A stretch of 64,000 nt of DNA. Source: Myxococcales bacterium (GTDB taxonomy: Bacteria; Myxococcota_A; Polyangia; Haliangiales; Haliangiaceae). The position numbers and the translations under genes were made by a program. Below the pieces are notes generated by a model, which searched no databases, was not told where the DNA came from, and saw only the letters and a program-made list of their open reading frames with translations. The stretch covers positions 58,860-122,859 of the forward strand of contig JAYUVX010000034.1 of the NCBI GenBank assembly GCA_043753855.1, in the 5' to 3' direction. This document shows positions 7,788 through 63,564 of the stretch, in pieces. The number at the start of each line of letters is the position of its first letter. Within the stretch, counting starts at the first letter, position 1.

Positions 7788-9081
7788 TCATACCAGCGCG
7801 GTCGCTGCGATCCCCGCGCCGCACGCAAACAGAACCAGAATCCCCGTCACCGCGACGCGCTTGCCCAGGGGGGCACCGCCAACCACCGCGGCCATCACCG
7901 TCTTGACCAGGGTGTTGACCGCCACCGCGATCGAGATCGCGATCGTCGCCACACCCGTATCGATGCTGCTGTTCGCGAGCTTCGCGGTGGACACGGTCAC
8001 CGCGTCGACATCCGTCGTGCCGCCGAGCGCGGATGCGAGGTAGAGGCCGCTCGACCCGACGTACTCGATCGCAGCGCGGCTGATCAGCAGCACGGCTGCG
8101 AACACCAGCGTGACCTTCACCGCGCTCCCCAGCTCGAATGGATTCTTGAGGTTCAGCTCGGCAGGCGGCTCGTTGGAGCGGCGGAACGTCATCGCGAGGC
8201 CGAGCAGCGTCGCGCCGAGCATGGCGCCGAGCGGCAGCGCGAGCGTGCGCAGCAGCGTTAGATCGATCAGCGCGACGAGCACGCCCACGCGGCCGAGCAT
8301 GATCATCCAGGCGATCGCGATCGCGCCCGCGGCGACCGGGGCGAGTGCAGCATCCTGCTTCGCGCGCCGCGAGAACGACAGCGTCACCGCCGTCGAGGAC
8401 ACCAGGCCGCCGAGCGCGGCACCGAGCAGCAGACCGCGGCGCGCTCCGAGCAGCCGCATCGCGACATAGCCGAGGAACGACAGGCCGGAGATCGTGACCA
8501 CCATCAACCCGAGCGTGCGCGGGTTGATCGCCGACAGCGGGCCGATGTCTCGATTCGGCAGCAGCGGCAACGCGATCACCGCGACGATCAGGAACTTGAC
8601 GGTGGCGTAGAAGTCCGCGCGCGAGACCTGCGCGGCAAACGTGTGAAACCACAGCTTCGACGACAGCAGGAACGTCAGCGTCACCCCGATCGCCGCAACC
8701 AGCAGCAACCGATCCGCCATCGGTTCGACCACGCCGCGACTCGCTGCGAGCGCACCGAGCAGGTAGGTCCCGATCACCGAGATCTCGGTGGTCATGCCGT
8801 GATCCGAGTCGCGCTTGATGTCGGCGGCGTAGGAGATCGCGACCAGTGCGAACACGCCGAACAGCGCCACCAGCGGGAGCCACATCGAGACCGGCTCGAG
8901 CAGCGTGGCGAGCGCGCCGACCAGCGCGACGAGCGGATAGGTACGAACCCCGCCGATCTGGTTTCCCCCGCGCTCCAGCTTGGACTGCTCGCGCTCGAGC
9001 CCGATCAGTAGCCCCACGCCCAGCGCGGTCGCGAGTGCGAGCTGAGTCTCCACCGAGCGAGTGTGGTACGAATCGCTCGCC

Positions 9082-9083
<2 letters not shown>
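7788..9083 (-). CDS. MgtC/SapB family membrane protein with DUF4010-type C-terminal TM domain
   Basis: N-terminus LALATALGVGLLIGLEREQ is the MgtC signature, followed by about 10 TM helices. The rest of ORF 7788..9587 overlaps the OYE gene. A GTG at 9053 is an alternative start. Confidence 0.75.
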
Positions 9084-10554
<1,471 letters not shown>

Positions 10555-41635: not shown

Positions 41636-45448
<3,813 letters not shown>

Positions 45449-46449: not shown

Positions 46450-46841
46450 CACGGGCCCGGGTGCAAGGAACATGCGCGATGCGCCAGTGGCCTCGTTTGC
46501 TCGTGCGGCGCGTGTGACCGGCCGAAACGCTGGGCATCGTTCACGCACGTTCACGCTGACTACTGTTCACGACACGGTGCGCTCAGCATAAAAGAGAGTG
46601 GTCAAAGGGCAGGTACGCGTTCGACGTCGGTCAGGCGGTGCATTGTGTCGGGGCTTCATGTGGAACCGATCGCGTGGAGCTGGGGGGGACGAATCTTCCT
46701 TGCGCTGCTCGCTTCGGACGATCCCAGGAGGAAGCTCAACCAGCTGATGTTCGCGGCGGGGCGCGGTGGCGGCGATCGGCGGCTGAGGCAAGCAGGCAAC
46801 GGTGGACCGCCGCGCCGGCCTCTGGCGTAAGCTCGTCGCGC

Positions 46842-48551
46842 GTGCAATCCGAGATCAGGCCAGCGACCGACGCGACGATCGCCGAGCCCACGGCAGGCAA
46901 CGAGGTGACGCGCGACGGGGTGAATCACCTCTCGCACGACAGGCCACCCGCGGTCGCCGCGGCGCTGCACGTCGAGGAGACCTCGCGGACGCACGGATTC
47001 TCGACGGCGGTCGCGGTGATGAGCGCCATCGCGCTCGGGTTCGTGCCGGCGTTCGGCGGCCGGGTCGTCGACGAGGCAGCCTTCATCGCTGCGCTCGTCC
47101 TGGCGCTCGTGACCTCGCTCATCGTTCGCCATCGATGTGCTGATCCGCGACGATACACGAAGCGGGTGTTTCGAATCTTCGGCTTCGTTCTCACAACGAT
47201 CTCGTTCGAGGTCATCTATCGCGTCGGGGTGCTATCGCCGGCGCCGATCGTTCTCACCCTCGGCGTCACCGCGCTCGGTCTCGGACTCGACCGCCGGTTC
47301 GCGCTCGCGATCACGGTGTACGGCATTGCTGGGTATGCGACGCTCGCGTCCCTCGTCGTCGGCGGCACGATCCCGGACGCCGGCTTGATCCGCACCGACG
47401 AGCTGTCCACGGTCGCCAAGATCTTCGGCGTCGTGGTGCCGCCGGTCGTGTTGCTGATCACGCTCGGGCTGGCGCGTCTGTCGCGTCGGACCCTCGAGAG
47501 GGCGGCGACGGACTGTCACGCGGCGCTGCGGCTCGCAAGTCAACAGGAAGCGCTGCTCGCCGAAGCTCACCAGAACCTCGATGACGCACTTCATGTCGGG
47601 GTTCGACGTCGTGGCCCGTGGACGGGGCAGCTAGCCGGTTCGTGGAAGCTGCTCGAGGTCGTCGGCAGCGGAGCCATGGGCGATGTCTACGCAGGGCGGC
47701 ACACCGACACCAACGAGCCAGCGGCCGTGAAGATCTTGCATCACGCGGCTGCGCTCAGCGAGATCTCGATCGAACGCTTCGAACGTGAGGGAAAGATCAC
47801 CAGCGCGCTGCAATCTCCAAACGTCGTGACGGTGTACGAGACCGGACGGATCTCTGCGCTGATCCCGTACCTCGCGATGGAGCTCCTCCAGGGCGAAGAC
47901 CTCGCCCGACTGTTCAGGCGAATCCGGATCCTGCCGCCGGCGGAGGTCCAGGAGCTCGCGCGGCAAGTCGCCTGCGGGCTCGACGCGGCGCACGCGCAGG
48001 GGATCATTCATCGCGATCTCAAGCCGCAGAATCTGTTCCGGGTTGGCGTCGATCGCTGGAAGATCCTCGACTTCGGTGTGTCCACGCTCGCCGGGTCACG
48101 AGGCACGCTGACGCAGGCCGCGCTGGTCGGGACGCCCAGCTACATGGCGCCCGAACAGGCGCGCGCGGAGCGGGTCGATGCGCGATGTGACGTGTTCGCG
48201 CTGGGCGCGGTGCTGTACCGAGCCATCGTTGGTCGGCAAGCCTTCGGCGCGCCCAACACGCCGCAGGTCCTGTTCAACGTTGTCTACCGGATGCCACCCC
48301 GCCCTGGAGAGCTCGTCGATCGGATTCCACCGGATGTCGACTCGGTCCTCGCGCTCGCGCTTGCCAAGCGGCGCGACGACCGCTTCGCGACCGCCGGTGA
48401 GCTATCCCGGTCGTTGGCCGCGGCATATCGCCACGCGATCGCCCCCGAGCTTCGCGTGCGTGCAGAGCTGGTGTTGCGCAAGCATCCGTGGGGACAAGCG
48501 ATCTCACTCGACCACGAACACCGCACCAACCGGCTCCCTCATCCGCGCTGA
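46842..48551 (+). CDS. Ser/Thr protein kinase with N-terminal multi-TM domain
   Basis: About 6 TM helices and a coiled coil, then the kinase (GSGAMGDVYAG, AVKIL, HRDLKPQNLF, DFGVS, GTPSYMAPEQ). Start uncertain: GTG 46842 or ATG 46638. Confidence 0.85.
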   Translation: MQSEIRPATDATIAEPTAGNEVTRDGVNHLSHDRPPAVAAALHVEETSRTHGFSTAVAVMSAIALGFVPAFGGRVVDEAAFIAALVLALVTSLIVRHRCADPRRYTKRVFRIFGFVLTTISFEVIYRVGVLSPAPIVLTLGVTALGLGLDRRFALAITVYGIAGYATLASLVVGGTIPDAGLIRTDELSTVAKIFGVVVPPVVLLITLGLARLSRRTLERAATDCHAALRLASQQEALLAEAHQNLDDALHVGVRRRGPWTGQLAGSWKLLEVVGSGAMGDVYAGRHTDTNEPAAVKILHHAAALSEISIERFEREGKITSALQSPNVVTVYETGRISALIPYLAMELLQGEDLARLFRRIRILPPAEVQELARQVACGLDAAHAQGIIHRDLKPQNLFRVGVDRWKILDFGVSTLAGSRGTLTQAALVGTPSYMAPEQARAERVDARCDVFALGAVLYRAIVGRQAFGAPNTPQVLFNVVYRMPPRPGELVDRIPPDVDSVLALALAKRRDDRFATAGELSRSLAAAYRHAIAPELRVRAELVLRKHPWGQAISLDHEHRTNRLPHPR

Positions 48552-49271
48552 CCCGAGGGTGCGTGCATAGGCACGCTCGGTCGCGTCTCGCAGCGACGAA
48601 CAGCTCCCGAACAGGCCGTGGAGAATCATGTGATAGCGGGTCTGGCGACTCTCGTTGACGACGTGATGAACATGACTGAGGTCGAGGAGGAACGCCGCGC
48701 CCGTGCGCATCGGGAGGACGCCATCGCCCAACGTGAAGCGGCAACCGTCGGGCATGTTCAGCACGACGTTGAGGCCGATCATGCTCGGGAGCTTCCAGTC
48801 CGTATGTGGCGCGACGTATCCGCCCGGATCGAGAGCCATGTAGCGCGTCCGAAACAACGTCGCGCCCGCGAACCTGGCTGCACACCAGCGCTGCGTCTGC
48901 GGCGCACGCTCCGCGACCTCGTCGCACCAGCGGTACGGGGCCGCCAGGTCCGATGCGTAGCCATACGTGCGAGCGCCTTGCGTGTGGCTCGCTGATAGAC
49001 CGCGAAGACACAGCGCTCTCCATCCGCGGTGTTCATACTCGCCGTCGCGGTGGGGGACGAAGCGCTCGTCGAGCGCGATGGCCTCCTCGATCAACTCCGG
49101 CGGAACCGCGAGGTCGATCTCGAGGTACGGCAGTCCGCCGCGGAAGATGATCCAATAGTACGAACCGGGCGTCGCGAGGTCGTCTCGCAGGATCGCGAGC
49201 TCCCGATGCTGGGCGGGCAAGCCAAATGCTCGCTGGAAGTGGGCGATCAGGTCGGCGTCGGTCATTTGCAT
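48504..49271 (-). CDS. Aspartyl/asparaginyl beta-hydroxylase-like Fe(II)/2-oxoglutarate oxygenase (cupin)
   Basis: GGYVAPHTDW..LNVVLNMP..FLLDLSHVHHVVNESRQTRYHMIL matches the AspH/LpxO-type pattern PH.D..H.V.N.S..R. GAGGAA SD precedes the start, 1 nt after the upstream stop. Confidence 0.7.
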   Translation of the reverse strand: MQMTDADLIAHFQRAFGLPAQHRELAILRDDLATPGSYYWIIFRGGLPYLEIDLAVPPELIEEAIALDERFVPHRDGEYEHRGWRALCLRGLSASHTQGARTYGYASDLAAPYRWCDEVAERAPQTQRWCAARFAGATLFRTRYMALDPGGYVAPHTDWKLPSMIGLNVVLNMPDGCRFTLGDGVLPMRTGAAFLLDLSHVHHVVNESRQTRYHMILHGLFGSCSSLRDATERAYARTLGSARMREPVGAVFVVE

Positions 49272-49272
49272 C

Positions 49273-50769
49273 TCAGGTTCCTCGTGTGGAGAACAGCGCG
49301 GCCGCGGCCAAGCCAAGCCGCAGCAGCAAGAGGCGAGCCTCGAGCTGGTCGACGGCGGGCAGCGCTCGCACGAACGCGGGACGGAAGTGTGCCAGGATCC
49401 GCCGCTCGCCCAGCACGAGCTCGACGAGCTGCTGTTGCAACCGGGGGTCGCCGAGCGCGGCGACGTAGTCAACCGTGACGCCATAGGACCTCGCGGGTGG
49501 CTCTTCGGGGCGGTCAGGGTTCGCGGCCAGGTGGGCGCGTCGCTCGGCGCGCCACTCGACCGGCAAGCGGCGGTGCAACTCGACGAGGTCGACGTCGTGG
49601 AACGGCGTGACGACGCTGCGCACGCTCGCCATCAGCGCGCGGTTGATGTTCCACAGCACGAAGCGGTTCTCGAGCGAGACCCGTTCGAGGCACGCACCCA
49701 GCGACTCGTCGCCGCGTGGGGCTGCGACCGCGAGGATCTCCTCGACGGCCTGCGTCGCCGGTCCGCGCAGATCATCGAGCATGTTCGCCTTCAGCAGCGG
49801 GGTCAGGGACACGATCTTGTTCGCGACCACGCGCTGCGCGATCCACCACGGTAGCGATTCGACATCATCTGGAGCGGCCGCGACGACGTGAGGCTCCCAG
49901 CCGTGGGTCCCCAGCCACAGCCCGCCCGCCGGGAGGTCCTGCAGAGGCCGCGGGCCCATCGGCAAGGTCGCGAACGTGTTCTCGCTTGGATCTGCCACGA
50001 CGTTCGCCCACTCGACCATCGCGGTGACGGCATCGCGAAAGTCGACGCCGATGACGTGGTGCTTGACCGCTGCTCCGGAAGTCAACCTGCGCGCGGCGAT
50101 CACATCACCCGCCGTGTCGGGGCCAAACGTGACCGCCTCGAGCGGAACCCCTCGCTCGCGCGCGCGTCTCCACATCGCACGTGAATCGACACCGCCCGAG
50201 AGCAAGAGCAGGATCGGCGTCCGCGCGTTCGAGATGGCACGCTCGACCGCCACATCCTCCGCGCCGGCGAGATCGCGGGGATCAGCATCGGCCGGTTCGT
50301 CGTCGGGGAACTGCCAGTATCGGGAGCTCGCTCCGGTGGCGAGGTCGAACCAGGTGCCGGGCGGAAGCCGCTGCACGCCCTCGAACAAGGTGCGTGTGCT
50401 CGGGATGTGGCCGAACGTGAGGAGGGAGCAGAGGGCTGTCGGATCCATCGGATGTCCGCGCTCGACGAGCCGCGCTGGGTTGGACGCCACGGCTCCTCCA
50501 CGGCGATAGGCGAGTCGGGATCCGAGGCGGTCTGTGGCGACCTTTGTGCCGTGCGTTACGACGAACGAGCCGTCGTACGCGGACAGCCGGTCGTCACGGT
50601 CGAACCTCGGCTTGGGGCCCGTGCGGTGAGTGACCGGACCGGAGAACGTCAAGGCGTTGACTGGCGTGGGACTGGCCTTCGCCGACGTCTCCTCCGCTCT
50701 GTTGACCTGCGCAACGCTCGCGTTGCTGCGCGCCCCATGTTCTTGGGGCTTACCATTGAGGAAGCTCAT
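49273..50769 (-). CDS. Asparagine synthetase B-like ATP-dependent (PP-loop) enzyme without glutaminase nucleophile
   Basis: LLLSGGVDS PP-loop and AsnB-type linker LLTFGHIPSTRTLFEGVQRLPPGTWF. The N-terminus is MSFLNGK.. (no Cys2), and only about 100 aa precede the synthetase domain. Confidence 0.75.
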   Translation of the reverse strand: MSFLNGKPQEHGARSNASVAQVNRAEETSAKASPTPVNALTFSGPVTHRTGPKPRFDRDDRLSAYDGSFVVTHGTKVATDRLGSRLAYRRGGAVASNPARLVERGHPMDPTALCSLLTFGHIPSTRTLFEGVQRLPPGTWFDLATGASSRYWQFPDDEPADADPRDLAGAEDVAVERAISNARTPILLLLSGGVDSRAMWRRARERGVPLEAVTFGPDTAGDVIAARRLTSGAAVKHHVIGVDFRDAVTAMVEWANVVADPSENTFATLPMGPRPLQDLPAGGLWLGTHGWEPHVVAAAPDDVESLPWWIAQRVVANKIVSLTPLLKANMLDDLRGPATQAVEEILAVAAPRGDESLGACLERVSLENRFVLWNINRALMASVRSVVTPFHDVDLVELHRRLPVEWRAERRAHLAANPDRPEEPPARSYGVTVDYVAALGDPRLQQQLVELVLGERRILAHFRPAFVRALPAVDQLEARLLLLRLGLAAAALFSTRGT

Positions 50770-50911
50770 GGGTGCTCACTTTTCTCGGGCCTCGCCGAGC
50801 TTGTTGGTGCACGCACCTGCGGATGACATGCCGGCCCGGTCGTCACATGGCACGGTCCGACGACCCGTGTTTGACCCCCGGGTTGATCGTCGAGGTCACG
50901 CCCTGAACGTC

Positions 50912-50941
50912 ATGTAAAGCAGCCGCTGCTGACCTTTACAT
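50912..50941. promoter_or_regulatory. AT-rich inverted repeat ATGTAAAG-N14-CTTTACAT, candidate activator binding site
   Basis: Read directly. Centred about 65 bp upstream of the -24 element, in the 253-bp divergent intergenic region, which is lower in GC (59/100 by hand count for 50881-50980). Confidence 0.45.
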
Positions 50942-50990
50942 CGCGGCAACCAGACGGACGTTTGGTGGCGCGTTTCGAGGCTCGAAGCAG

Positions 50991-51006
50991 TGGCGCGGCG
51001 CTTGCT
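50991..51006 (+). promoter_or_regulatory. Sigma-54-type -24/-12 promoter candidate (TGGCGC-N5-TTGCT)
   Basis: 10 of 11 consensus positions of TGGCAC-N5-TTGCW, with the GG and GC doublets correctly spaced. 17 nt upstream of the precursor ATG. A sigma-54 activator gene is in the same array. Confidence 0.45.
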
Positions 51007-51022
51007 CCTTCTCCGGTTCACA

Positions 51023-51199
51023 ATGAACAAGAACATTGCATCGAACCCCATCAACCAGTCCGAAGTCACCTCCACCAACGAGGAGCTGCCGGTCGCCGCT
51101 GAGTCTGCCGAGGAGCTCTCGGCCGAGGATCTGCGCAAGGCACTCGGCGGCGCGGGCCCGTCGAGGAACGTCGCGACCTGCGGCGACTACAACCTCTAG
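51023..51199 (+). CDS. Candidate RiPP precursor peptide (58 aa) with double-glycine leader
   Basis: MNKNIASNPINQSEVTSTNEELPVAAESAEELSAEDLRKALGG/AGPSRNVATCGDYNL. The leader matches LSxxELxxIxGG. High GC3. Sits directly upstream of the modifying-enzyme genes. Confidence 0.65.
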   Translation: MNKNIASNPINQSEVTSTNEELPVAAESAEELSAEDLRKALGGAGPSRNVATCGDYNL

Positions 51200-51236
51200 C
51201 CAGCTCTCGCCAACTGTAGGCAACCTGATCGCGCCC

Positions 51237-51272
51237 CCCTCGTAGGCCTCTTCTCAGCCGGACCTGCGAGGG
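51237..51272 (+). terminator. Stem-loop after the precursor gene (10-bp stem, 16-nt loop), candidate partial terminator or attenuator
   Basis: ccctcgtagg (51237-51246) pairs with cctgcgaggg (51263-51272), with one G-U pair. No T-tract. Confidence 0.35.
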
Positions 51273-51327
51273 CGGGCATCTCACCGGCTCTAGCCCGCGC
51301 GCGAAGGCGATACTTCGCACCCATTTT

Positions 51328-51828
51328 ATGATCCGCCCAATCACCGACCATGACGCCGCCTCGTTCGTAGCGCTTTCGATCGCGCTTGATAGCGAGACCG
51401 AATACATGCTGTTCGAGCCAGGAGAGCGCACGCTCACCGTCGAAGACCAGCGCCGGCGAATCGCGACGATCCAGGCGGGGACCACGCAGGTCGTGCTTGT
51501 TGCCGACGACGATTCCAGCATCGTGGGATTTGTCGGCGCCTCGCGGGGCGCTGCACGCCGGAACAAACACTCCGCGAGCTTCGTGATCGGTGTCCTCGCG
51601 GCACACGCTCGCCGCGGCATCGGAACGGCGCTCCTCGTCGAGCTCGAGGCGTGGGCGCGCCGCACGGACGTGCACCGACTCGAGTTGACCGTGATCGAGC
51701 AGAACGAGCGCGCCCGCGCTCTGTACGTGAAGCAGGGATTTCAGGTCGAGGGGCGAAAACGGCACTCGCTGCAGATCGCCGGCCGCTGGGTCGACGAGGT
51801 CGCGATGGCCAAACTACTCGCGGAGTGA
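51328..51828 (+). CDS. GNAT family N-acetyltransferase
   Basis: Acetyl-CoA-binding motif A region ARRGIGTALLVELEAWA and ELTVIEQNERARALYVKQGF. 166 aa. Confidence 0.85.
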   Translation: MIRPITDHDAASFVALSIALDSETEYMLFEPGERTLTVEDQRRRIATIQAGTTQVVLVADDDSSIVGFVGASRGAARRNKHSASFVIGVLAAHARRGIGTALLVELEAWARRTDVHRLELTVIEQNERARALYVKQGFQVEGRKRHSLQIAGRWVDEVAMAKLLAE

Positions 51829-51832
51829 CTTC

Positions 51833-52924
51833 ATGCAACTCGGCATCGGCTTCAATCCACGTTACTTGACAGGCGAGCTGACGTGTCCAAGCAACGCGTC
51901 GTACCTGGAAGCCGGGGCGAGCTTGCTGCTCGCGTCGCCTACCTTGCCGGCGGTCTTCTCGGCGATCCGGGAGACTTCACTCCACCTCTCGCGCGCACCC
52001 TTCTGCGAGGCGCCTGCTGTCCAGGAGCGCTTCGCGGCGAAGCTCGCGGCCCGCCTGCCGGCCACGGTGTCGTCGGTCGGACTCCACCTCGGAGGCCCCT
52101 ACGCGACGGACCTCGGCTTCTTCGGGCTGGGGACCGCCTATCTCCCGACCCCCGACAACGAGCGCCGCGCGCGGCATCTGCTCGAGCTGTTGATCGACGC
52201 GACCGGACGCCGCGTGCTGATCGAGAACGCGAACTACTACGATCAGACGCTGGGGCAGGCCGCGGCCACCTTGGCGACCCAGAATCGCCTGTGCGAATGC
52301 CCCGGGGTCGGGCTGATCCTCGACCTCTCGCACCTCACGATGGGAGCGCACAACCTCGGCGTCGCGCCCGACTTCTTGCTCGGGATGATCGACCTCGAGA
52401 AGGTAGCCGTGATCCACTTGTCGGGAATCTCGGAAGGCCGAGATGGCGCCTATCATGACGGGCATCAGCTGCCGGTCCATCCTCGCGTGTGGGAGCTGCT
52501 GGATCGTACGCTCGCGGTCATCGGCCGGCCGGTGACGCTGGTGCTCGAGCACTCGGATCCACGCTGGACGAACGCCAACGCTGGCTTCGCGCGAGACTGG
52601 GATCAGCTCCGCGCGGCGTCGGTAGCGCCAGCGCCACGCCTGCCGGCGTTCCCGATCGATCCGGACCAGGTCGCGATCGGATACATGGCGAACGTGGTCC
52701 TTCCACAACGCTTGCCTGCCGTGCATGCCGAGCTCGGTCGGCCGGCATTCGATGCGCTCGTGCGCGCCTGGGCTCCGGCGTACCTCCACCGCGTTCGCAG
52801 CCAACCGCAAGCGACCGTGGTGTTGCGCGAGGACGAGCGAGATTTCTACGGTGGCATGCTCCACGACCCCGTGGCGGACTTCGTCGGCGAGTTGCAGCGC
52901 CGAGCGGGGGTGGAGACATGCTGA
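51833..52924 (+). CDS. DUF692 / MNIO (multinuclear non-haem iron oxidase) family enzyme with about 100-aa C-terminal extension
   Basis: Motif series SLHLS, GLHLGG, VLIENANYY, LILDLSHL, VIHLSG, YHDGHQLPV, LVLEHSD parallels the MbnB/TglH ligands. The extension ..LPQRLPAVHAELGRPAFDALVRAWAPAY.. resembles a DUF2063 partner N-domain. Confidence 0.75.
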   Translation: MQLGIGFNPRYLTGELTCPSNASYLEAGASLLLASPTLPAVFSAIRETSLHLSRAPFCEAPAVQERFAAKLAARLPATVSSVGLHLGGPYATDLGFFGLGTAYLPTPDNERRARHLLELLIDATGRRVLIENANYYDQTLGQAAATLATQNRLCECPGVGLILDLSHLTMGAHNLGVAPDFLLGMIDLEKVAVIHLSGISEGRDGAYHDGHQLPVHPRVWELLDRTLAVIGRPVTLVLEHSDPRWTNANAGFARDWDQLRAASVAPAPRLPAFPIDPDQVAIGYMANVVLPQRLPAVHAELGRPAFDALVRAWAPAYLHRVRSQPQATVVLREDERDFYGGMLHDPVADFVGELQRRAGVETC

Positions 52925-53715
52925 CGATGAGCGTGAACAACCTCAGCGAGTTCGGGCTGGCCAAGGCCGTGCTCGCGGAGGCTGGACTGTCCCGACTCGA
53001 TTGCGTGGAGATCCTCTGGGACAACTACTGCCACCTCGACCCGGGCGCGCTGGCGGCGATGGTCGCGCGGTTCAGTGATCGCGTCTCGATGCACGTGATG
53101 TGGTCACAGTTCCTCGAGCGCGACGCGGAGTCCTGGAAGGCGTATCTCGCGCAGCTGCGCGCTCACGTTCGCGTGCTGCGTCCGATCGCGGTCTCCGACC
53201 ACCTGTGTCGATTCCGGTCCGAAGCGCTGCGCCTGCTCATTCCGCAGGAGCATGACTATCGCGCCCTCGACCACGTCTGCGAGCGGGTCTCCGAGTATCA
53301 GGAGGCGCTCCAGCAGCCGCTGGCGCTCGAAAACTTCGCATCCACCGAGATCCACGCGACCCGCCAGATCGAATTCCTCGACGCGGTGAGCGCGCGGACA
53401 GGTTGCGGCATCTTGTTCGATGTCTCGAACGCCGTCGTCGGCGAGCTCAACGGGCTCGGCCCGGTCGACCTCTGGCTCCAGTGGCTCGCCGGCCGCACGA
53501 TCCAGCTTCACGTCGGTAGCTACGCGTTCAACGAAGGCAGTGGTCTCTATCACGATACGCACAACTCCGACGTCTCGACGGAGACGACACGACGACTTAC
53601 CGAAGCGATGCAGGTGATGCGGGTGACGAGCGTGTGCTACGAACGTGACTATCAGAAGACGGTCGCCTCGATGGCCGGCGACCTTCGCAGCATTCACGCG
53701 GCGGTGCTCGCGTGA
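52918..53715 (+). CDS. Second DUF692 / MNIO family enzyme (paralogue)
   Basis: DCVEILWDNY, SMHVMW, SDHLCRF, PLALENFAS, ILFDVSNAVV, IQLHVGSY, YHDTHNSDV, VCYERDY closely follow the UPF0276/DUF692 consensus. The ATG overlaps the upstream stop (ATGCTGA). Confidence 0.8.
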   Translation: MLTMSVNNLSEFGLAKAVLAEAGLSRLDCVEILWDNYCHLDPGALAAMVARFSDRVSMHVMWSQFLERDAESWKAYLAQLRAHVRVLRPIAVSDHLCRFRSEALRLLIPQEHDYRALDHVCERVSEYQEALQQPLALENFASTEIHATRQIEFLDAVSARTGCGILFDVSNAVVGELNGLGPVDLWLQWLAGRTIQLHVGSYAFNEGSGLYHDTHNSDVSTETTRRLTEAMQVMRVTSVCYERDYQKTVASMAGDLRSIHAAVLA

Positions 53716-54110
53716 CCCTCGAAGAGCGCGTCCGGCGGTTGACGCTCAAGCAGATCTACCAGCGACAAGAGGAGCCCTCCGCGCTACCGACCCACCTGCT
53801 GTGGCAAGCGCCGCTCGCGGCGGCAGCACCCAATGATCCGGTCGGCGTCCTCAGCGCTCGGATGGAGCTCGCCGGCCGGTTGTGGTTGCGCAACCTGGAT
53901 CTGCGCTTCTCGAGGCGGCTCATCATCTCGCACTGCGAGGAGCCGCTGAGCTACGTGTTCCAGCGTGCGAACCTACCGGACGAGACGAACCTCGTCGCCG
54001 GACCGTCTCGGGTGTCGTTGCTGCGGCATGGTCCGACGATGTTTCACCTGCCCATCCGGTTTTTCGAATCCCTCGAGACCTACGACCGAACGCTGTTTGC
54101 CAGCTTCTGA
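53712..54110 (+). CDS. Hypothetical 132-aa protein translationally coupled to the MNIO pair
   Basis: GTGA start/stop overlap with the second MNIO gene. High GC3. No family recognised by eye. Confidence 0.5.
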   Translation: MTLEERVRRLTLKQIYQRQEEPSALPTHLLWQAPLAAAAPNDPVGVLSARMELAGRLWLRNLDLRFSRRLIISHCEEPLSYVFQRANLPDETNLVAGPSRVSLLRHGPTMFHLPIRFFESLETYDRTLFASF

Positions 54111-54160: not shown

Positions 54161-55890
<1,730 letters not shown>

Positions 55891-55894
<4 letters not shown>

Positions 55895-57057
55895 GCTGCT
55901 TTCTCGACGATGTATTCCGATACGTCAGCATGACCGGTGGGGATCTGGCTCGACTCTCGGAGCTGCATCACGTGCTGGAGCCCGAGTTCCCGGCGATCGC
56001 CGAGCAGTTCTACCAGGCCGTCCTCGAGGACCCACGGACCGCGGCGATCCTGTCGGGTCCCGACCAGGTCCAGCGGCTTCGCATGTCGCTGATCGACTGG
56101 ATGTCGACGGGATTGCTCGGCCCCCACGACGAGAAGTTTTACGACAAGCGGTCGCGGATCGGCCGCCGCCACGTCCAGATCGGACTCGCACAGGAGTACA
56201 TGTTCACCGGCATGACGGTGGTCCGGCTCGCCTACCAGGAGCGCATCTTCGCCGCGTTTCCAGGCGCTGCCGCCGCGGCTCCACTCGCCGCCGTCAACAA
56301 GCTGCTCGATGTCGAGCTCGCGATCATGGTGCGCCACTACCAGCTCGATACCGAATCCCGGCTGGTCCACCGCGAGCGCCATGCGCTCTCCGATCGGCTC
56401 CTCGCGATGCAGACGCTGACCGCGGGGCTCGCACACGAGGTCAGAAACCCGCTCAACGCGGCGAAGCTTCAGCTCGAGCTCCTCGATCGCCGGCTGCGCC
56501 GCGAGCACGATGATCCGAGGTTCACCGAGCCAAGCTCGCTCGCGAGTCAGGAGATGGAGCGGCTCACCAGGCTGCTCAACGACTTCCTCGCCTTCGCCCG
56601 TCCACCCGAGCTCAACCTCGAGGAGCGCGACATTGCGGAGCTCGTACGTCATGTCTACGAGGTGGAGCGGCCCGGTGCGGAGAAGCACGGTGCGGCTTTC
56701 GAGCTCGTGGTCAGTCCGGCTCATCTGACGGCGAAGGTCGACGCGCCGAAACTCCACCAGATCGTCGCCAACATCATCCGCAACGCGATCGAAGCCGTGC
56801 CTCCGGGCGGGCATGTCACCGTCGAGCTCGAGGGCTCGCACGAGTCGTTCACGCTCCGGGTCCACGACGATGGTCCGGGAATCAGCGAAGCGGTGAAGAC
56901 GCGGATCTACGAGCCGTTCTTCTCCACGAAGGAGAGCGGCACCGGGCTCGGGATGTCGATCGTATATTCGCTGGTCACCCTGCACGGCGGAGCGATCGCG
57001 ATCGACACCAACGACCGCGGCACGCGGTTCGACGTCACGATCCCGCGCCGTCAGTGA
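55891..57057 (+). CDS. Globin-coupled sensor histidine kinase
   Basis: N-terminal protoglobin-type sensor (EQFYQAVLEDP with distal Tyr, IGRRHVQIGL with proximal His), HisKA H-box LAHEVRNPLN, HATPase N/G boxes (NAIEA, DDGPGI, GTGLGM). GTGA overlap with the activator gene. Confidence 0.8.
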
Positions 57058-57851: not shown

Positions 57852-58031
57852 CTAGGAGGAAGGCGGAAGACGAGGGTCCCGCGCAGGAACAGGTGGGTCG
57901 TCGAACAGGATACGCCGAGGAGGCGTATCGACGTCGTCGAGCTGACCGGAACGCACCGTCCAGATGAAGGCTGCAACTGCCGCGCCAGCGACGAGCAGGG
58001 CGAGCGGCAACACGATGTAGAGCGAGATCAC
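57852..58031 (-). CDS. ccoS: cbb3-type cytochrome oxidase assembly protein CcoS
   Basis: Not in the ORF track (59 aa). Hand translation: [45 protein letters not shown]... The GTG overlaps the ccoI stop (GTGA). Confidence 0.8.
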
Positions 58032-60424
58032 GAGGTCCTCCGGAACGCTCGCGACCGCAGCGAGCTGGCGAGCACCGTCAGCGAGCTGAGCGGCATCACG
58101 AGTGCGGCGATCAACGGATGAATAACTCCGACCACCGCGAGCGTCCCGGCGGTCAGGTTGTAGATCAAGGACAGGCGCAGGTTGCGGCGAATTGTCGCGA
58201 GCGTCGCGCGTGCGCCGGCAACCGTCGCGGCGATGTCACCGATCGCCGGCGAGCGCAGGTAGACGTCCGCGGTCTCGATCGCGATCTCGGCCGAGCCAGC
58301 GACCGCGATCCCGGCGGTGGCTGCTGCCATCGCCGCCGCATCGTTGACACCATCGCCCACCATCACCACCGGGCCCGCGAGCCGTCGCTCGACGACCCGG
58401 GCCACCTTGTCCTCGGGGCTCGCTCCGCCGTGACAGCGATCGGCGGGGATCCCGAGCGCAGCTCCTATGCGCCGCGCCACCCGCGCGTCGTCGCCGGACA
58501 GCAGCTCGAGCTGCCAGCCCGCCGCGGTGAGCTCGTCGAGCGCGGCTTTTGCGTCGGGACGGATCGGATCCGCCAGCCCCGCAACGGCGACCGCGCGCTG
58601 ATCGACGGCGATCACGATCGGAGTCTCGCCGCGCTCGGCGACCTCTGCGATCCATGCCTCGATCCCGGGATGACACGACGTTCGCGCGCGCACCCACGGC
58701 GGCGCACCGACGATCACCTCGTGACCCCCGACCAGACCGGCGATGCCGCGACCGAGCTCCTCCTCGATCTGGAGGGCCACGAGTGGTGAGGTCGCGTGAG
58801 CTCGCAACGCGCGCGCGATCGGATGATCACTCCCCGCCTCGACGGCCACCGCGAGCCCGACCGCATCGACATCGCCGCGCCAGGAGACCACGGCGAGCTT
58901 GCCGGCGGTCAGCGTGCCGGTCTTGTCGACGAACATCGTGCCCGGGGTCGCGAGCCGCTCGAGCGCATCGGCACCCTTGATCAGCACGCCCCGTTTCGCC
59001 GCACGGCCGAGGGCCACGGTGACGGCGAGCGGCGTGGCGAGTGCGAGTGCGCACGGACACGTGACGATCAGCAGGGCCATCGCATTCTCGGCGCCGACCT
59101 CGAGCGACACCGCCGCCGTCCACGCCAGCAACGTGATCAAGGCCGCGAACGTCACGATCTTCACGAACTGGCCGGCGATCTGATCGACCAGCCGCTCGAT
59201 CGGCGCCTTGCGTGCGGACATCGCCTCGATCGCGGCCACCAGCCGACCGATCCGCGTGGTCTCGCCGATCGCGGTCGCACGGATGATCAACGGTGCCGCC
59301 AGGTTCGCGGTGCCGGCGTTCACCGGATCTCCAGCGGAGACCTCGATCGGCCGCGACTCGCCGGTCAGCAGCCCGACATCGAGCGCCGAACGACCCTCGA
59401 CGATCACGCCATCGACCGGGATGACGTCGCCGACGAGGACCTTGACGAGATCGCCGGGCACGATCGCTTCGATCGGCACCTCGACGACGACGACGCCATC
59501 GATCCGTCGCGCGCGACCCGGCGTCAGGGCGAGCAGCAGCTCGGCGGAGGTCGACGCGCGTCGCTGGTGACGCAGCACGACCCAGCGGGCGACCAGCAGC
59601 AGGAACACCAGCATCGCGAGGCTGTCGAAGTAGATCTCGCCGGTGCCGCGCAGCACGTTTGCCGAGCCCCAGCCGAGACCGGCGAGGATCCCGATCGAGA
59701 GCGGCAGGTCGAGGTGGAGCCGGCGCGCGCGGAGTGCACCGATCGCGGTGCGGAACATCGGGGTCGCCGCGTAGCCGAGCCCGGGCACCGCGACCAGCAT
59801 CGAGTACCAGCGGAACAACGTCGCATCGGCGCGCGCCATCCCGCCGAACAGTCCGCAGTACAGCGCGATCGAGAGCAGCATGAGGTTGCCCATCGCGGCC
59901 CCCGCCACGCCGAGCTTCGCGAGCAGCGCGCGATCCTCCTTGCGTCGCGCCCCATCGCGGTCGAGCCCACGGTACGGATGCGGCGGATGGCCGACGCCGT
60001 CGAGGAACCGGGCGATCGTCGACAGCGACACCGCGCGCGGATCCCACGTCACATCTGCCCGGCTCCGCCCCAGATCGACGCGGACCTCCAGCGTGCCGGG
60101 CACGCACCGCGGCGCACTCTCGACCAGCCAGATGCAGGCGGTGCATCTCAGATCCTCGAGGTAGAGCGCCGCGTGTGCCATGCCGCTCGCGGCGAGCTGG
60201 ACATGCACGCGCTGAAACGCCGGATCATCGAGCTCGGAGTACGCGCGCCCGGTCGCGTTCGCGGGTGCGGCGTCCTCGCGGAGCGCATAGAACTGCTCGA
60301 GCCCGTTGGCCCTGATCGCGGTGTAGACCACCTCGCAGCCGCTGCAGCAGAACTCCGCACGGCCCACGGGCACCGGGAGGCCGCAGTGGATACACGGAGC
60401 GAGCTGCGCCAGCGCCGCCGTCAC
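58028..60424 (-). CDS. ccoI: Heavy-metal (copper) translocating P1B-type ATPase CcoI/FixI
   Basis: N-terminal [30 protein letters not shown], phosphorylation site [20 protein letters not shown]. The GTG start overlaps the upstream stop. Confidence 0.9.
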
Positions 60425-61110
60425 GTACCGGCCTTGGCATGGCAATGCGGAGCCGTCACACCGCCGGGGCCCGCGTCGCGCCACCGGCTCGCGAGCGTGA
60501 CGAGGCCGAGCGCGATCAGCACGCACGCCGTGATCACCGGCAGCCGGCCGCGCAGCCGAGCGAGCAGCGGTCCTGCGATCGCGAGCACGCCGGTCATCGC
60601 CGGCACGGTACCGAGCCAGAACACCAGCATCACCAGCGCACCCGACGCCGCGTGGCCGGTCCCCGCAGCGGTGACGACGAATGCCCATAGCCATCCGCAT
60701 GGCAACAGGCCCGTGAGCACGCCGATCAAGGCTGCGCGGGTCACCGCACGTCGACCACGCAGCTGGACGAGCCCGCGCTGAAACAGCACGCCGCTCTGCG
60801 CGGGTCCACGTAGCCAGCCGCGCGCCACCGCGATCGCATGGACACCCCAGCCGACGATCATCAGTCCCGAGACGATGGTGGCGACGTGCTGCACGCTCGC
60901 GAGGTCACCCGCCAGATCGACGGCGCCACCGACGAGGCCTGCGATCGTGCCGAGCACCACGTAGGTCGCCAGCCGCCCGAGCGAATGAACGAGCGCGAGC
61001 CGGATCGATCGCGCGCCGCCGTGCATGCCGACCAGCGGACCGCACATCGCCACGCAGTGCACGCTGCCGATCAAGCTCGATACGAAGATCGTGGCAGCGA
61101 GCGCGCTCAT
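60421..61110 (-). CDS. TauE/SafE-like (DsbD_2-type) membrane protein of cbb3 clusters
   Basis: N-terminal GSVHCVAMCGPL motif, 6 TM helices, second Cys pair LLPCGW. Start/stop overlaps on both sides. Confidence 0.65.
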   Translation of the reverse strand: MSALAATIFVSSLIGSVHCVAMCGPLVGMHGGARSIRLALVHSLGRLATYVVLGTIAGLVGGAVDLAGDLASVQHVATIVSGLMIVGWGVHAIAVARGWLRGPAQSGVLFQRGLVQLRGRRAVTRAALIGVLTGLLPCGWLWAFVVTAAGTGHAASGALVMLVFWLGTVPAMTGVLAIAGPLLARLRGRLPVITACVLIALGLVTLASRWRDAGPGGVTAPHCHAKAGT

Positions 61111-61556
61111 CGTGCATCCACCTGCAGCCGGCGGACATAGCGCTTGCCCGCGCGGTCGACTGCAATCACGAGATCGTGCACGCCCGGTGTGCGATCGCCT
61201 TGGCCGCGGTATGCGCCCGCGCCTGCAGCGACCAGCTGCACGTCGAGCCGCTCGTGCGCCCGTGCACGCGGATAGCCGGTCACCCGCACCTGCGCCTCCG
61301 AGAGTGGCGCACCCGTTGCATCGCGTGCCGAGATCACGAGCTCGCCATCGACCAGGGTCGCATCCACGCGCCAGCCAAGCGCGCGGCTCGCCGTGGCCTC
61401 CGCCAGTGTGTCGTCATAGTGCGCTGCCTGCTGGTAATAGTCGGGGATCACCTCCGAGGATCCGACGCTCGCCACGGTCGCAAGGATCACCATCGCGGTC
61501 ACGTTGCCGGCGAGCAGCACGACGATCGCGAGGACCCAGCGGCGAGCCGGCGTCAT
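61107..61556 (-). CDS. ccoH: FixH/CcoH family protein
   Basis: Single N-terminal TM, then IPDYYQQAAHYD.. and a beta-rich periplasmic domain. Located between ccoG and ccoI. Confidence 0.75.
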   Translation of the reverse strand: MTPARRWVLAIVVLLAGNVTAMVILATVASVGSSEVIPDYYQQAAHYDDTLAEATASRALGWRVDATLVDGELVISARDATGAPLSEAQVRVTGYPRARAHERLDVQLVAAGAGAYRGQGDRTPGVHDLVIAVDRAGKRYVRRLQVDAR

Positions 61557-62938
61557 GGCGTCCCCCGCTCCGGACCGAGCAGCGTGACCGAGACGATCCG
61601 CTCGAACCCGGAGCTGTCGTTGATCCGGAGCTGGACAGAGCGCTTGCCCTTCACGAACGAGCTCGGCGCCGCGTCCACGAACAGCGGCACGTCGATCGAG
61701 TGGCGCGACTTAACCTGCCAGCTCGGCTGTACCGAGCGCAGCGTCGCGTCGGGCGCTCCGACCAGCGAGATCGAGTAGCCACGGGACTCGTCGGTCTCGT
61801 TCTCGATCTTGAGCTGCACGCGCGCGGCGATCCGGCCATCTGACAGCTCGACGAAGCTCGGACCACTCAGCCGCTCGACCCAGACCTCGGCGAGCGGCTT
61901 GGTGCCGACCGACCAGATGAACAGGCCCGACACCGTCGCGAGCAGCAGCGGATAGATCACGGTGCGCAGGCGCAGCACCTTGCGAGGCTTGCCCGCGAGC
62001 TGATCACTCGACGTGTAGCCGATCAGATGACGCGCCTGCCCGGTCTTGTCCATGACAGTGTCGCAGGCGTCGGCACACTGCGCGCAACCGATGCACTCCA
62101 TCTGCAGACCCTTCCGGATATCGATGCCGGTCGGGCACACGTCGACACAGGCGCCGCAATCGACGCACGCCCCGCGCTCGGTCACGACCGGCAGCTTGTG
62201 CTTCGGCTTGGACCGCGGCTCGCCGCGCGTCACGTCGTACGCGATGATCAGCGATTGCTTGTCGAGTAGCACCGTCTGCAGGCGCCCGTACGGGCACGCC
62301 ACGATGCACATCTGCTCGCGGAAATAGGCGAAGTCGAACAGCATGAGCGCGGACACGCCGAACACCACCGCGAAGCCACCGAGGTGGTCGAGCGGTGAGC
62401 CCCACACCCAGCGTTCGAGTCGTTCCGTACCGACGAAGTACGCCAGGAACACGTTGGCGAGTACGAACGACAAGGCCGCGTAGATCATCCACTTGATCAT
62501 CCGGCGCCAGTGGAACCGCGGCAGCTTGGCCTGCTGTGCCGCATTGCCCTCGATCCAGCGCTCGATCGGGCGGAACACCAGCTCCAGATAGACGGTCTGC
62601 GGGCACCCCCAGCCGCACCACACGCGGCCGAACAGCGCGGTGACCAGGAACACCAGCAGGACGATGGTCAACCCGAGCAGCATCAGCACGAAACCATCGG
62701 ACGGTCGGAACACGGCGCCGAACGCGGAGACCTCGCGCGAGATCAGATCGATCAGTAGCGCGGGGCGACCGCCGATCCGGATCCGCGGCAGCAGCACGAA
62801 CAGGATGATCAGCGCCACACCGACGATCCGTCGGCCGCGCAGGAACCTGCCGCGGGCGAGCCGCGGGCTCAGCCAGTGCCGCGTGCCATCGGCGTTGAGA
62901 GTCGACAGCACCCGCGCGCCCGCGATCGGAGGAGTCAT
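61553..62938 (-). CDS. ccoG: Cytochrome c oxidase accessory protein CcoG/FixG (2x[4Fe-4S])
   Basis: WCGWGCPQTV, CIVACPYGR, CVDCGACVDVCP, CIGCAQCADAC. Start at the internal ATG, overlapping the ccoP stop (ATGA). Confidence 0.9.
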   Translation of the reverse strand: MTPPIAGARVLSTLNADGTRHWLSPRLARGRFLRGRRIVGVALIILFVLLPRIRIGGRPALLIDLISREVSAFGAVFRPSDGFVLMLLGLTIVLLVFLVTALFGRVWCGWGCPQTVYLELVFRPIERWIEGNAAQQAKLPRFHWRRMIKWMIYAALSFVLANVFLAYFVGTERLERWVWGSPLDHLGGFAVVFGVSALMLFDFAYFREQMCIVACPYGRLQTVLLDKQSLIIAYDVTRGEPRSKPKHKLPVVTERGACVDCGACVDVCPTGIDIRKGLQMECIGCAQCADACDTVMDKTGQARHLIGYTSSDQLAGKPRKVLRLRTVIYPLLLATVSGLFIWSVGTKPLAEVWVERLSGPSFVELSDGRIAARVQLKIENETDESRGYSISLVGAPDATLRSVQPSWQVKSRHSIDVPLFVDAAPSSFVKGKRSVQLRINDSSGFERIVSVTLLGPERGTP

Positions 62939-63564
62939 GGCGCGAACGCCTCGACGGGCTCTCCCTGCGACGCCTTCCCACCATCGAGGTTCGTGCCACG
63001 CAGCGTGGTGACATATGCGACGACGTCGAGGATGTCGGCGGCGGGGAGCTGCTCGCCCCACGCGATCATCGCAGTGCCGCTCACGCCGTCGTGCACCGTG
63101 TGGAACATGTCCATCCGGGTCGTGCCGTGCAGCTGGAAGTTATCGGTGAGGTTGGGCCCGATCAGGCCGCGACCTCCCGCCGCGTGGCAGGCGATGCACT
63201 TGGTCGCGAACACGGCGGCTCCGTGCTCGACCAGCTTGCCGTCCTGCGCGTTGCGGGCGAGCGCGGCCTCGGTGACGTGAGCAGCCTCCGCCTGATCACG
63301 CATGCTCTTCTTGTCGTTGAACTCCGCGAGCTCGGAGACATAGCGCTGCTGCGGCGTAGTGCCCCAGTTGGCGATGTGGAAATAGAAGCCGTACATCGCG
63401 GCGAACACGATCGAACCGATGAAGATCGCCGACCACCAACCGGGTAGCGGGTTGTCGTACTCGTGGATTCCGTCGTAGGAGTGATCCATGAGGCGCGGCT
63501 CGGCCGGCTCGGTGGTGTCCTGCGGTGCCTCGACCGCCGAGGGAGTTGCATGCGCGACGCTCAT
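62935..63564 (-). CDS. ccoP: cbb3-type cytochrome c oxidase subunit III (CcoP), mono-haem form
   Basis: N-terminal DGIHEYDNPLPGWW motif and TM helix. Only one CXXCH (CIACH) in 209 aa. Confidence 0.85.
   Translation of the reverse strand: MSVAHATPSAVEAPQDTTEPAEPRLMDHSYDGIHEYDNPLPGWWSAIFIGSIVFAAMYGFYFHIANWGTTPQQRYVSELAEFNDKKSMRDQAEAAHVTEAALARNAQDGKLVEHGAAVFATKCIACHAAGGRGLIGPNLTDNFQLHGTTRMDMFHTVHDGVSGTAMIAWGEQLPAADILDVVAYVTTLRGTNLDGGKASQGEPVEAFAP

Follow-up and report, generated by a model that had tools for sequence, protein, structure and literature searches.

The locus analysed here lies in a 64,000-nucleotide stretch of contig JAYUVX010000034.1 from a Myxococcales bacterium of the family Haliangiaceae (GenBank assembly GCA_043753855.1). 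This whole stretch is called the window, and all positions refer to it unless another locus is named. A preliminary description had proposed that seven tightly packed open reading frames (ORFs) in the window constitute a biosynthetic locus for a ribosomally synthesised and post-translationally modified peptide (RiPP). All seven were located in an ORF check of the window. Five of them follow each other on the forward strand: a short precursor gene, a GNAT acetyltransferase gene, two genes for enzymes of the DUF692 family (MNIO enzymes, MNIO-1 and MNIO-2 in the following) and a gene for a small protein. The other two, for an AsnB-like and an AspH-like enzyme, are transcribed in the opposite direction and are treated after the forward genes. 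The features of the forward strand are the following.

51023-51199, forward strand: precursor peptide, 58 amino acids, with a leader (residues 1-43) ending in the double-glycine sequence LRKALGG; the GG lies at nucleotides 51146-51151.
51152-51196, forward strand: predicted core AGPSRNVATCGDYNL, with the conserved target motif TCGDYNL at nucleotides 51176-51196.
51328-51828, forward strand: GNAT acetyltransferase, 166 amino acids (PF00583, E 2e-16).
51833-52924, forward strand: MNIO-1, 363 amino acids (PF05114, E 1.1e-17).
52918-53715 (alternative start 52927), forward strand: MNIO-2, MbnB-type, 265 amino acids (PF05114, E 6.9e-32).
53712-54110, forward strand: small partner protein, 132 amino acids, translationally coupled with MNIO-2 through a GTGA overlap.

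Both MNIO ORFs were placed in PF05114 by hidden Markov model searches, as their assignment to DUF692 had predicted, and the reading of the locus as a RiPP system, in which a short precursor is accompanied by a GNAT and by two true members of MNIO/DUF692, is supported. The GTGA overlap joining MNIO-2 and the 132-amino-acid ORF was confirmed in the sequence. The ATGCTGA overlap between MNIO-1 and MNIO-2 is likewise present as described; however, public gene calls put the start of MNIO-2 three codons later (52927), thus the 7-nucleotide overlap depends on the start chosen. The two enzymes had also been called DUF692 paralogues. Both belong to DUF692, but they are not close paralogues, since MNIO-1 and MNIO-2 share only 27% identity over 111 amino acids (E 0.007) and each of them is far closer to its counterpart in the mov-type operons introduced below.

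The double-glycine leader defines the predicted core as the 15 residues listed above. The precursor ends in ATCGDYNL, it contains a single Cys, which forms a Thr-Cys dyad with the preceding residue, and Asn57 is the penultimate residue. It was the only ORF of this kind within the window. The precursor did not belong to any Pfam family, and in NCBIfam it gave only a chance-level match to the plantaricin C family (E 0.034, 14.6 bits vs a cut-off of 29). The short ORFs of the related loci align with it as one precursor family, having a double-glycine leader (ending in ...LRKALGG, ...REIVGG or ...EEVVGG), a variable middle part and a conserved C-terminus with the consensus [A/M/T]-T-C-G-[D/S]-Y-N-[L/V/I]. 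Members of the family are 50-115 amino acids long, and the double-glycine leader could be recognised in five of the seven readable precursors. Thr52, Cys53, Gly54, Tyr56 and Asn57 are invariant across five aligned homologues; Tyr is followed by Asn in 9 of the 10 distinct precursors, and this Asn is the penultimate residue in 7 of the 10, the window included. Since a conserved short ORF has been kept in the homologous loci, the RiPP reading stands.

The order short ORF, GNAT, MNIO-1, MNIO-2 and a protein of 121-156 amino acids recurs in eight other distinct loci (nine with the window). The loci counted were contigs of the relatives obtained by word search, which come from soil metagenomes, and two genome matches, the metagenome-assembled genomes of a Halothece (L011) and of a member of the Nannocystales (L012). 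Because the order recurs in eight other distinct loci, the arrangement of the cassette can not be attributed to chance. Two of the precursors deviate from the common form. That of Halothece (8686-9033, 115 amino acids, ending in ATCGSYNIL) carries a Sec signal peptide in place of the double-glycine leader, and that of the Nannocystales locus (approx. 9690-9891) sits between the GNAT and MNIO-1 genes and ends in ATCGDYIITVA, without an Asn. The GNAT gene was found in the cassette of all nine distinct loci, the window counted. Its orthologues (38-70% identity) occur in seven loci, while Halothece has a different GNAT in the same position (9009-9971, 320 amino acids), which is not orthologous to the myxobacterial enzyme. 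No GNAT is present in the three mov-type operons described below, and the gene is a marker of the subfamily. The best NCBIfam matches of the GNAT were amino-acid and peptide N-acetyltransferases, all of them far under the cut-offs. In two relatives (L003 and L005) ABC transporters with a C39 peptidase domain and HlyD-type proteins adjoin the cassette, which is consistent with cleavage after the GG. The other accessory genes of these relatives code for GT2 glycosyltransferases, or for a TauD-family enzyme together with an unassigned 309-amino-acid protein.

The presence of two DUF692 enzymes in one cluster had been considered to be without precedent. This could not be upheld, as such a design is found in the Group V methanobactin-like operons known from 2013, in which a DUF692-like ORF separates a single-Cys MbnA from MbnB and an MbnC is not clearly present (PMC3621798). 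Operons of this architecture, later named mov, are assigned to Vibrio, Photorhabdus, Streptomyces and other hosts (Kenney & Rosenzweig 2013; Chioti et al. 2024), and the second MNIO of the mov clusters is MovX (Chioti et al. 2024, via PMC12452194, PMC11252979 and PMC12912966). As far as it is summarised in these three papers, MovX has an extra C-terminal domain of its own, similar to a RiPP recognition element (RRE), does not need a partner, and cuts the N-Calpha bond of an Asn so that a C-terminal amide is left.

Three operons of the mov type, from Streptomyces sp. NPDC058157 (L015), Thiodiazotropha (L017) and Colwellia (L018), were used for comparison. Each of them codes for a short precursor, a long MNIO, an MbnB-like MNIO, an MbnC-like protein of PF27805 and a MATE exporter. 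Their precursors are 22-30 amino acids long and end in a TCG[D/S]YN motif: the Streptomyces locus has two identical tandem genes for a 22-amino-acid precursor (approx. 5700-5990), MIDIQDIEVMAEALTCGSYNKG, the Thiodiazotropha precursor is MEKKQLIEIDDIEVTTDYHSTCGSYNL, ending in HSTCGSYNL, and that of Colwellia is ...KISDKEATCGDYNR, ending in EATCGDYNR. In MovA the Asn that is cleaved is reportedly the penultimate residue.

MNIO-1 has a complete metal site in the family alignment (H51, H85, E131, D164, H167, H195, D209, H211 and E239). Its AlphaFold2 model (pLDDT 91) shows a TIM barrel and, after it, a conserved and mostly helical C-terminal extension of some 100 amino acids, and the top fold matches in the PDB were TglH and MbnB. 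MNIO-1 shares 29-36% identity (E 1e-42 to 1e-52) with the long MNIOs of the three mov-type operons. In a word-indexed search of 5.8 billion protein clusters 11 relatives of MNIO-1 were found including itself, that is 10 others. An exhaustive search with the profile of the family returned 86 representatives at E<1e-30, with a second tier of proteins of 360-387 amino acids scoring 190-300 bits, while generic MNIOs did not exceed 88 bits; the named hosts of this second tier were Streptomyces, Kitasatospora, Chitinimonas, Moraxella, Colwellia and Thiodiazotropha. All the long MNIOs, both the MNIO-1 relatives and the mov-type enzymes, have a His, residue 167 in MNIO-1, at the position of MbnB Asn166, where all the MbnB-type sequences have Asn. 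When metagenomes were scanned with the MNIO-1 profile, the sole match was a weak, irrelevant locus, and a plasmid search for MNIO-1 gave no match. From its sequence, MNIO-1 is predicted to be a long MNIO of the MovX type, which would cleave at the N-Calpha bond of Asn57 and leave a Tyr56-amide.

In the case of MNIO-2 the similarity to MbnB is direct: it matched the sequence of the M. trichosporium MbnB structure 7TCR with E 7e-33 and all nine metal-site residues of MbnB are retained (H54, H90, E133, D163, N166, H192, D208, H210 and E239). It shares 28-34% identity with the MbnB-like enzymes of the three mov-type operons. Its score against the MbnB equivalog TIGR04159 was 158 bits, under the cut-off of 325, and the scores against BufB (104 bits, cut-off 310) and HvfB (74 bits, cut-off 360) fell far short of the cut-offs. 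MNIO-2 is predicted to turn Cys53 and the carbonyl of Thr52 into an oxazolone/thioamide.

The small protein encoded after MNIO-2 belongs to a family of 121-156 amino acids, clearly homologous in 10 loci, where it follows MNIO-2-like genes. Tyr16, Trp31, Pro34, Arg50, Trp58, Asn61 and Asp63 are invariant. The 132-amino-acid protein had no match in profile searches of Pfam, NCBIfam or PDB, a homologue search with it returned the query alone, and when it was compared with the MbnC-like proteins and with the C-terminal extension of MNIO-1 the hhalign probabilities were 0.1-0.2. It occupies the position of MbnC/MovC and is presumed to be the binder of the precursor. An MNIO-2-type enzyme with the same small partner was also found in two loci without MNIO-1 or GNAT. 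In a 150-kb metagenome contig (L013, 7771-9187; the MNIO is named Kofleriaceae) the pair follows a Cys-rich precursor of 77 amino acids with a GG leader, and in Planktothrix agardhii (L014, 8001-9220; 108 contigs) its neighbours are dynamin-like, DUF87 and GmrSD genes, and no precursor is evident.

Comparison of the locus with the mov/Group V operons revealed agreement in the single Cys and the TCG[D/S]YN-x end of the precursor, in the gene order (precursor, long MNIO, MbnB-type MNIO, small protein), and in the two MNIO types, which are homologous, have full metal sites and include a long form with a C-terminal extension. The precursors of the subfamily are longer, with a double-glycine leader in most cases, than the 22-30 amino acids of mov; a GNAT gene is present in all nine loci, following the precursor gene except in the Nannocystales locus; the small protein shows no detectable similarity to the PF27805 MbnC-like proteins; C39-ABC and HlyD exporters accompany two relatives instead of the MATE exporter, which is missing from the window; the hosts include Myxococcota and Cyanobacteria; and the AsnB-like and AspH-like enzymes occur in the window alone. 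On this basis we consider, with a probability of about 0.72, that the five same-strand genes form the biosynthetic operon of a RiPP of the mov/Group V methanobactin-like type, belonging to a rare, uncharacterised subfamily, and that they act through the pathway outlined below. Homology, conserved metal sites, the core motif and the gene order carry this assignment, and it is from these that we infer every chemical step.

In the proposed pathway MNIO-2, together with the 132-amino-acid partner, would oxidise Cys53 by four electrons, and with the carbonyl of Thr52 an oxazolone ring and a thioamide would be formed. MNIO-1 would then cut the N-Calpha bond of the penultimate Asn57, removing the Asn-Leu tail and leaving Tyr56 as a C-terminal amide. 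The leader would be removed after Gly43, and the peptide exported, by a C39-peptidase ABC exporter (PCAT) encoded elsewhere in the genome. The GNAT may acetylate an amine (at the N-terminus or in a side chain) or a hydroxyl of the peptide, or it may give immunity to the producer. If the AsnB-like/AspH-like pair is a member of the system, it would carry out lineage-specific tailoring, most likely the beta-hydroxylation of Asp55 and an ATP-dependent change of a carboxylate or amide.

Several observations weigh against the assignment to the mov/Group V type. The absence of a leader peptidase and of an exporter from the cluster had already been pointed out, and it holds for a wider region: no C39 peptidase, PCAT or MATE protein was found anywhere in the 64-kb window. 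The precursor of the Nannocystales locus has no Asn, thus either the Asn cleavage is not universal or MNIO-1 targets something else. The partner gave an hhalign probability of only 0.1 with the PF27805 MbnC-like proteins of the three mov-type operons, and its single-sequence AlphaFold2 model reached a pLDDT of only 38. The connection to MovX was made through operons of the same architecture from other genera and not through the MovA, MovB and MovX sequences of Vibrio. Finally, the step assigned to MNIO-2 leans on a reaction of mov, where the MbnB homologue reportedly installs an oxazolone/thioamide at a Thr-Cys dyad.

The two genes on the opposite strand are the following.

49273-50769, reverse strand: AsnB-like PP-loop (adenylating) enzyme, 498 amino acids (PF00733, E 1.4e-6, 28.7 bits).
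48504-49271, reverse strand: AspH-like 2-oxoglutarate oxygenase of the Asp/Asn beta-hydroxylase family, 255 amino acids (PF05118, E 9e-13).

The stop of the AsnB-like gene and the start of the AspH-like gene are separated by 1 nucleotide, as had been noted, and this was confirmed in the sequence. The identification of the first enzyme as AsnB-like holds for its PP-loop, since the PF00733 match is confined to this region (amino acids 174-254) and SGGVDS is present at amino acid 191; however, the protein starts with MSFLNG, has no Cys2 and its N-terminal domain is shortened. An in-frame stop just upstream of the start excludes a longer N-terminus. Lacking the Cys nucleophile, with its N-terminus bounded by this stop, the enzyme can be expected to adenylate a substrate but not to hydrolyse glutamine. 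Its NCBIfam matches were partial matches to Asn synthases, the best one being the amidotransferase of the XrtA/PEP-CTERM exopolysaccharide system (E 6e-9, far under the cut-off). The HxD...H motifs to be expected are present in the AspH-like protein (HTD at amino acids 156-158, HHVVN at amino acid 202). Neither of the two proteins had a significant sequence match in the PDB, close relatives of neither were found in the metagenome scan, and a plasmid search with the AsnB-like protein gave weak, generic AsnB matches only. Neither gene occurs in any of the other eight distinct subfamily loci or in the three loci of the mov type. At their 3' ends the AspH-like gene and a convergent ORF for a membrane Ser/Thr kinase (46638-48551, forward strand) overlap by 48 nucleotides (48504-48551).

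Other known systems were also compared with the locus. The methanobactin systems with MbnABC (Groups I-IV) resemble it in the similarity of MNIO-2 to MbnB and in their identical metal-site residues. The context of the first modified Cys in the MbnA of M. trichosporium OB3b is LCGSCY, which resembles C-G-[S/D]-Y. With one modifiable Cys, the classic copper site of methanobactin, made of two oxazolones and two thioamides, cannot form here. A canonical methanobactin was rejected on account of the single Cys, the lack of an MbnC homologue and the lack of MbnM (MATE). Neither MbnM nor MbnN was found in the window; a systematic search for MbnT, MbnP, MbnH or TonB-dependent receptors was not made. 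A 649-amino-acid ORF (14435-16384, forward strand), 37 kb from the cluster, gave a sub-threshold match (E 3.7e-5) to the di-haem cytochrome c peroxidase/MauG family, to which MbnH belongs.

A second system with relevance to the reverse-strand genes is nitrilobacillin, in which the asparagine synthetase-like (AS-like) enzyme PesC converts the C-terminal carboxylate to an amide and further to a nitrile and needs a neighbouring beta-hydroxy-Asp (PMC13060819). As the pes cluster of Peribacillus is described there, it also combines an MNIO, a second protein of the MNIO fold, a small partner, an AS-like enzyme and a hydroxylase, and its modifications centre on an Asp beside the C-terminus (PMC13060819). 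PesX, however, lacks iron ligands, while both MNIOs of the window keep theirs; the Asp is hydroxylated by PesH, while an AspH-family enzyme is the candidate here; and PesC uses glutamine, while the glutaminase nucleophile is missing from the AsnB-like enzyme. The precursors also end differently, in R(V/T)DN in the case of pes and in GDYNL in the window; this sets the two apart as far as the published description goes.

In bufferins and oxazolins (BufBC, HvfBC) an MNIO with its partner also turns Cys into a copper-binding heterocycle, and a Sec signal peptide is found on their precursors as on that of Halothece, but these systems have DUF2063 partners and a single MNIO. The likeness to lasso cyclases is at the family level only, consisting in an AsnB-like synthetase with a PP-loop domain and no N-terminal Cys nucleophile. 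Among those ORFs of the window that were scanned with Pfam there was neither a PqqD-like RRE nor a transglutaminase-core domain, and the sole acidic residue of the core AGPSRNVATCGDYNL is at position 12, as opposed to the Asp/Glu at positions 7-9 in lasso peptides. A lasso peptide was rejected because of the absence of a B protein or RRE from the scanned ORFs and because of the unsuitable core.

The function of MNIO-1 and the membership of the reverse-strand pair are the points where other explanations have to be weighed. MNIO-1 might not be of the MovX type and might perform another oxidation on the G-[D/S]-Y segment, such as a Tyr or Asp modification or a cross-link. The identity of no more than 29-36% to the mov-type long MNIOs, the failure of its C-terminal extension to align with the Streptomyces extension, the Asn-less Nannocystales precursor and the fact that MNIOs of similar fold differ widely in reaction (Asp hydroxylation, Phe ortho-hydroxylation and others) would all agree with this. 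On the other hand the Asn following Tyr is conserved in nearly all the precursors and is penultimate in most of them, and MNIO-1 has the same gene position and the same His at the MbnB Asn166 position as the long MNIOs. We therefore regard this alternative as unlikely, though it deserves to be kept in mind, and retain the MovX-type assignment. The suggestion that one of the MNIOs is a catalytically dead decoy, controlling the other enzyme through competition for the partner as proposed for PesX, has a precedent in the non-catalytic MNIO-like paralogue of a cluster with an AS-like enzyme (PMC13060819). The metal sites of both MNIOs of the window are complete, with residues that vary little or not at all within the families, in contrast to PesX; a PesX-like role was rejected for either enzyme owing to the intact iron ligands, and we hold it to be extremely improbable.

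As to the reverse-strand genes, the preliminary description had counted all the seven genes as one cluster of a class not described before. In such a cluster the GNAT, the two MNIOs and the AsnB-like and AspH-like enzymes would jointly build a new scaffold. The AsnB-like/AspH-like operon diverges from the precursor gene across a gap of 253 bp and its two genes are only 1 nucleotide apart; both families are known in RiPP tailoring, where lasso lactams as well as C-terminal amides and nitriles are products of AS-like enzymes (PMC13060819); and enzymes without close relatives are what specialised tailoring enzymes might be. Nevertheless, the core of the locus agrees with mov/Group V in its precursor motif, in the order of its genes and in the types of both MNIOs, the pair is missing from the 11 other loci (eight of the subfamily, three of the mov type), and the relatives bear accessory genes of other kinds, thus we find a seven-gene class improbable. 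The opposite view, that the pair is an unrelated neighbour serving, for example, lipid or exopolysaccharide modification and that the cluster consists of the five same-strand genes, comes close to an even chance. No other locus keeps the two genes together with the cassette, the AsnB-like enzyme has its best NCBIfam match in an exopolysaccharide system, and beyond the pair lie genes for unrelated Ser/Thr kinases. The AspH/LpxO family, moreover, also hydroxylates lipids. Yet the pair directly adjoins the promoter region of the precursor in divergent orientation, Asp55 and the Asn residues of the core would suit an Asp/Asn hydroxylase, and nitrilobacillin offers a precedent for the joint action of an AS-like enzyme and Asp beta-hydroxylation (PMC13060819). 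Altogether the odds that the pair serves the peptide are about even. One specific scheme can be conceived, in which, once MNIO-1 has left the Tyr56-amide, the AspH-like enzyme would beta-hydroxylate the adjacent Asp55, and the PP-loop enzyme without glutaminase would adenylate the Tyr56-amide and dehydrate it to a C-terminal nitrile, the amide nitrogen being derived from Asn of the peptide through the MNIO and not from glutamine. The last step would correspond to the second half-reaction of PesC, for which a beta-hydroxy-Asp beside the C-terminus is likewise needed; the scheme is speculative and quite improbable as it stands.

Two features of the surroundings may bear on the expression of the five-gene operon.

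50991-51006, forward strand: sigma-54-type -24/-12 promoter-like element TGGCGCGGCGCTTGCT, a consensus match only, with one mismatch.
54161-55894, forward strand (public gene-call start): FHA-domain sigma-54 enhancer-binding protein (PF00158 E 7.9e-70, FHA 2.7e-13, HTH_8).

The promoter-like element ends 17 nucleotides before the ATG of the precursor, so the 5' untranslated region would be very short. Four sites of this type were observed in the window vs 1.27 expected, and the two closest relatives (L008 and L010) have comparable elements 49-50 nucleotides ahead of their precursors. The gene of the FHA enhancer-binding protein begins 50 nucleotides after the partner gene. Judged from this adjacency and from the sigma-54-like element, it is possible that the protein regulates the operon. 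It is followed on the same strand by a protoglobin-coupled histidine kinase (both within 54161-57057). Two Ser/Thr kinases are encoded upstream of the cluster (41636-45448 and 46638-48551), and with the FHA activator these may make up a regulatory route from kinase to FHA protein. In the gap of 128 nucleotides between the stop of the precursor and the start of the GNAT gene there is a GC-rich hairpin of about 16 bp without a U-tract (approx. 51232-51278, forward strand); the overall fold of this region was not significantly better than that of shuffled sequences (z = -1.5).

The window has about 67% G+C, abundant Ser/Thr kinases and the FHA-containing sigma-54 activator, and among named organisms Kofleriaceae and Nannocystales have the nearest relatives of its proteins, which agrees with an origin in the Myxococcota. 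Genes for the maturation and for subunits of a cbb3-type cytochrome oxidase are found at 58028-63564 (reverse strand), including a CcoI-like copper P-type ATPase, a DsbD_2 protein, CcoG/FixG and FixP. Such a copper-handling context near a methanobactin-like cluster may or may not be relevant to the role of the peptide, and it may be a coincidence.

The two-MNIO design as such is already known, as it is that of the mov/Group V type. To our knowledge mov is the only two-MNIO pathway characterised so far. The novelty lies in a rare subfamily that has a GNAT, a partner protein of a new kind and another logic of export, and, in this genome, in two accessory enzymes that are unique to it. The literature searched on MovB/MovC, and on MNIO together with Myxococcus, gave no description of the GNAT subfamily. 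As a more speculative and improbable prospect, this subfamily, with its novel partner, might make a scaffold not yet seen among the RiPPs of MNIO enzymes.

More and more unusual peptide chemistry is being traced to MNIO enzymes. The branch represented by this locus has exchanged the MbnC-like partner for an unrelated small protein and has recruited a GNAT and export of the double-glycine/PCAT kind. It thus provides a test case for the recognition of the substrate by an MNIO with a non-canonical partner, for the generality of MovX-type amidation and for the purpose of a peptide with a single oxazolone/thioamide. If the AsnB-like/AspH-like pair acts on the products of the MNIOs, it would represent new late-stage chemistry; otherwise the locus would be a useful, incremental entry for genome mining.

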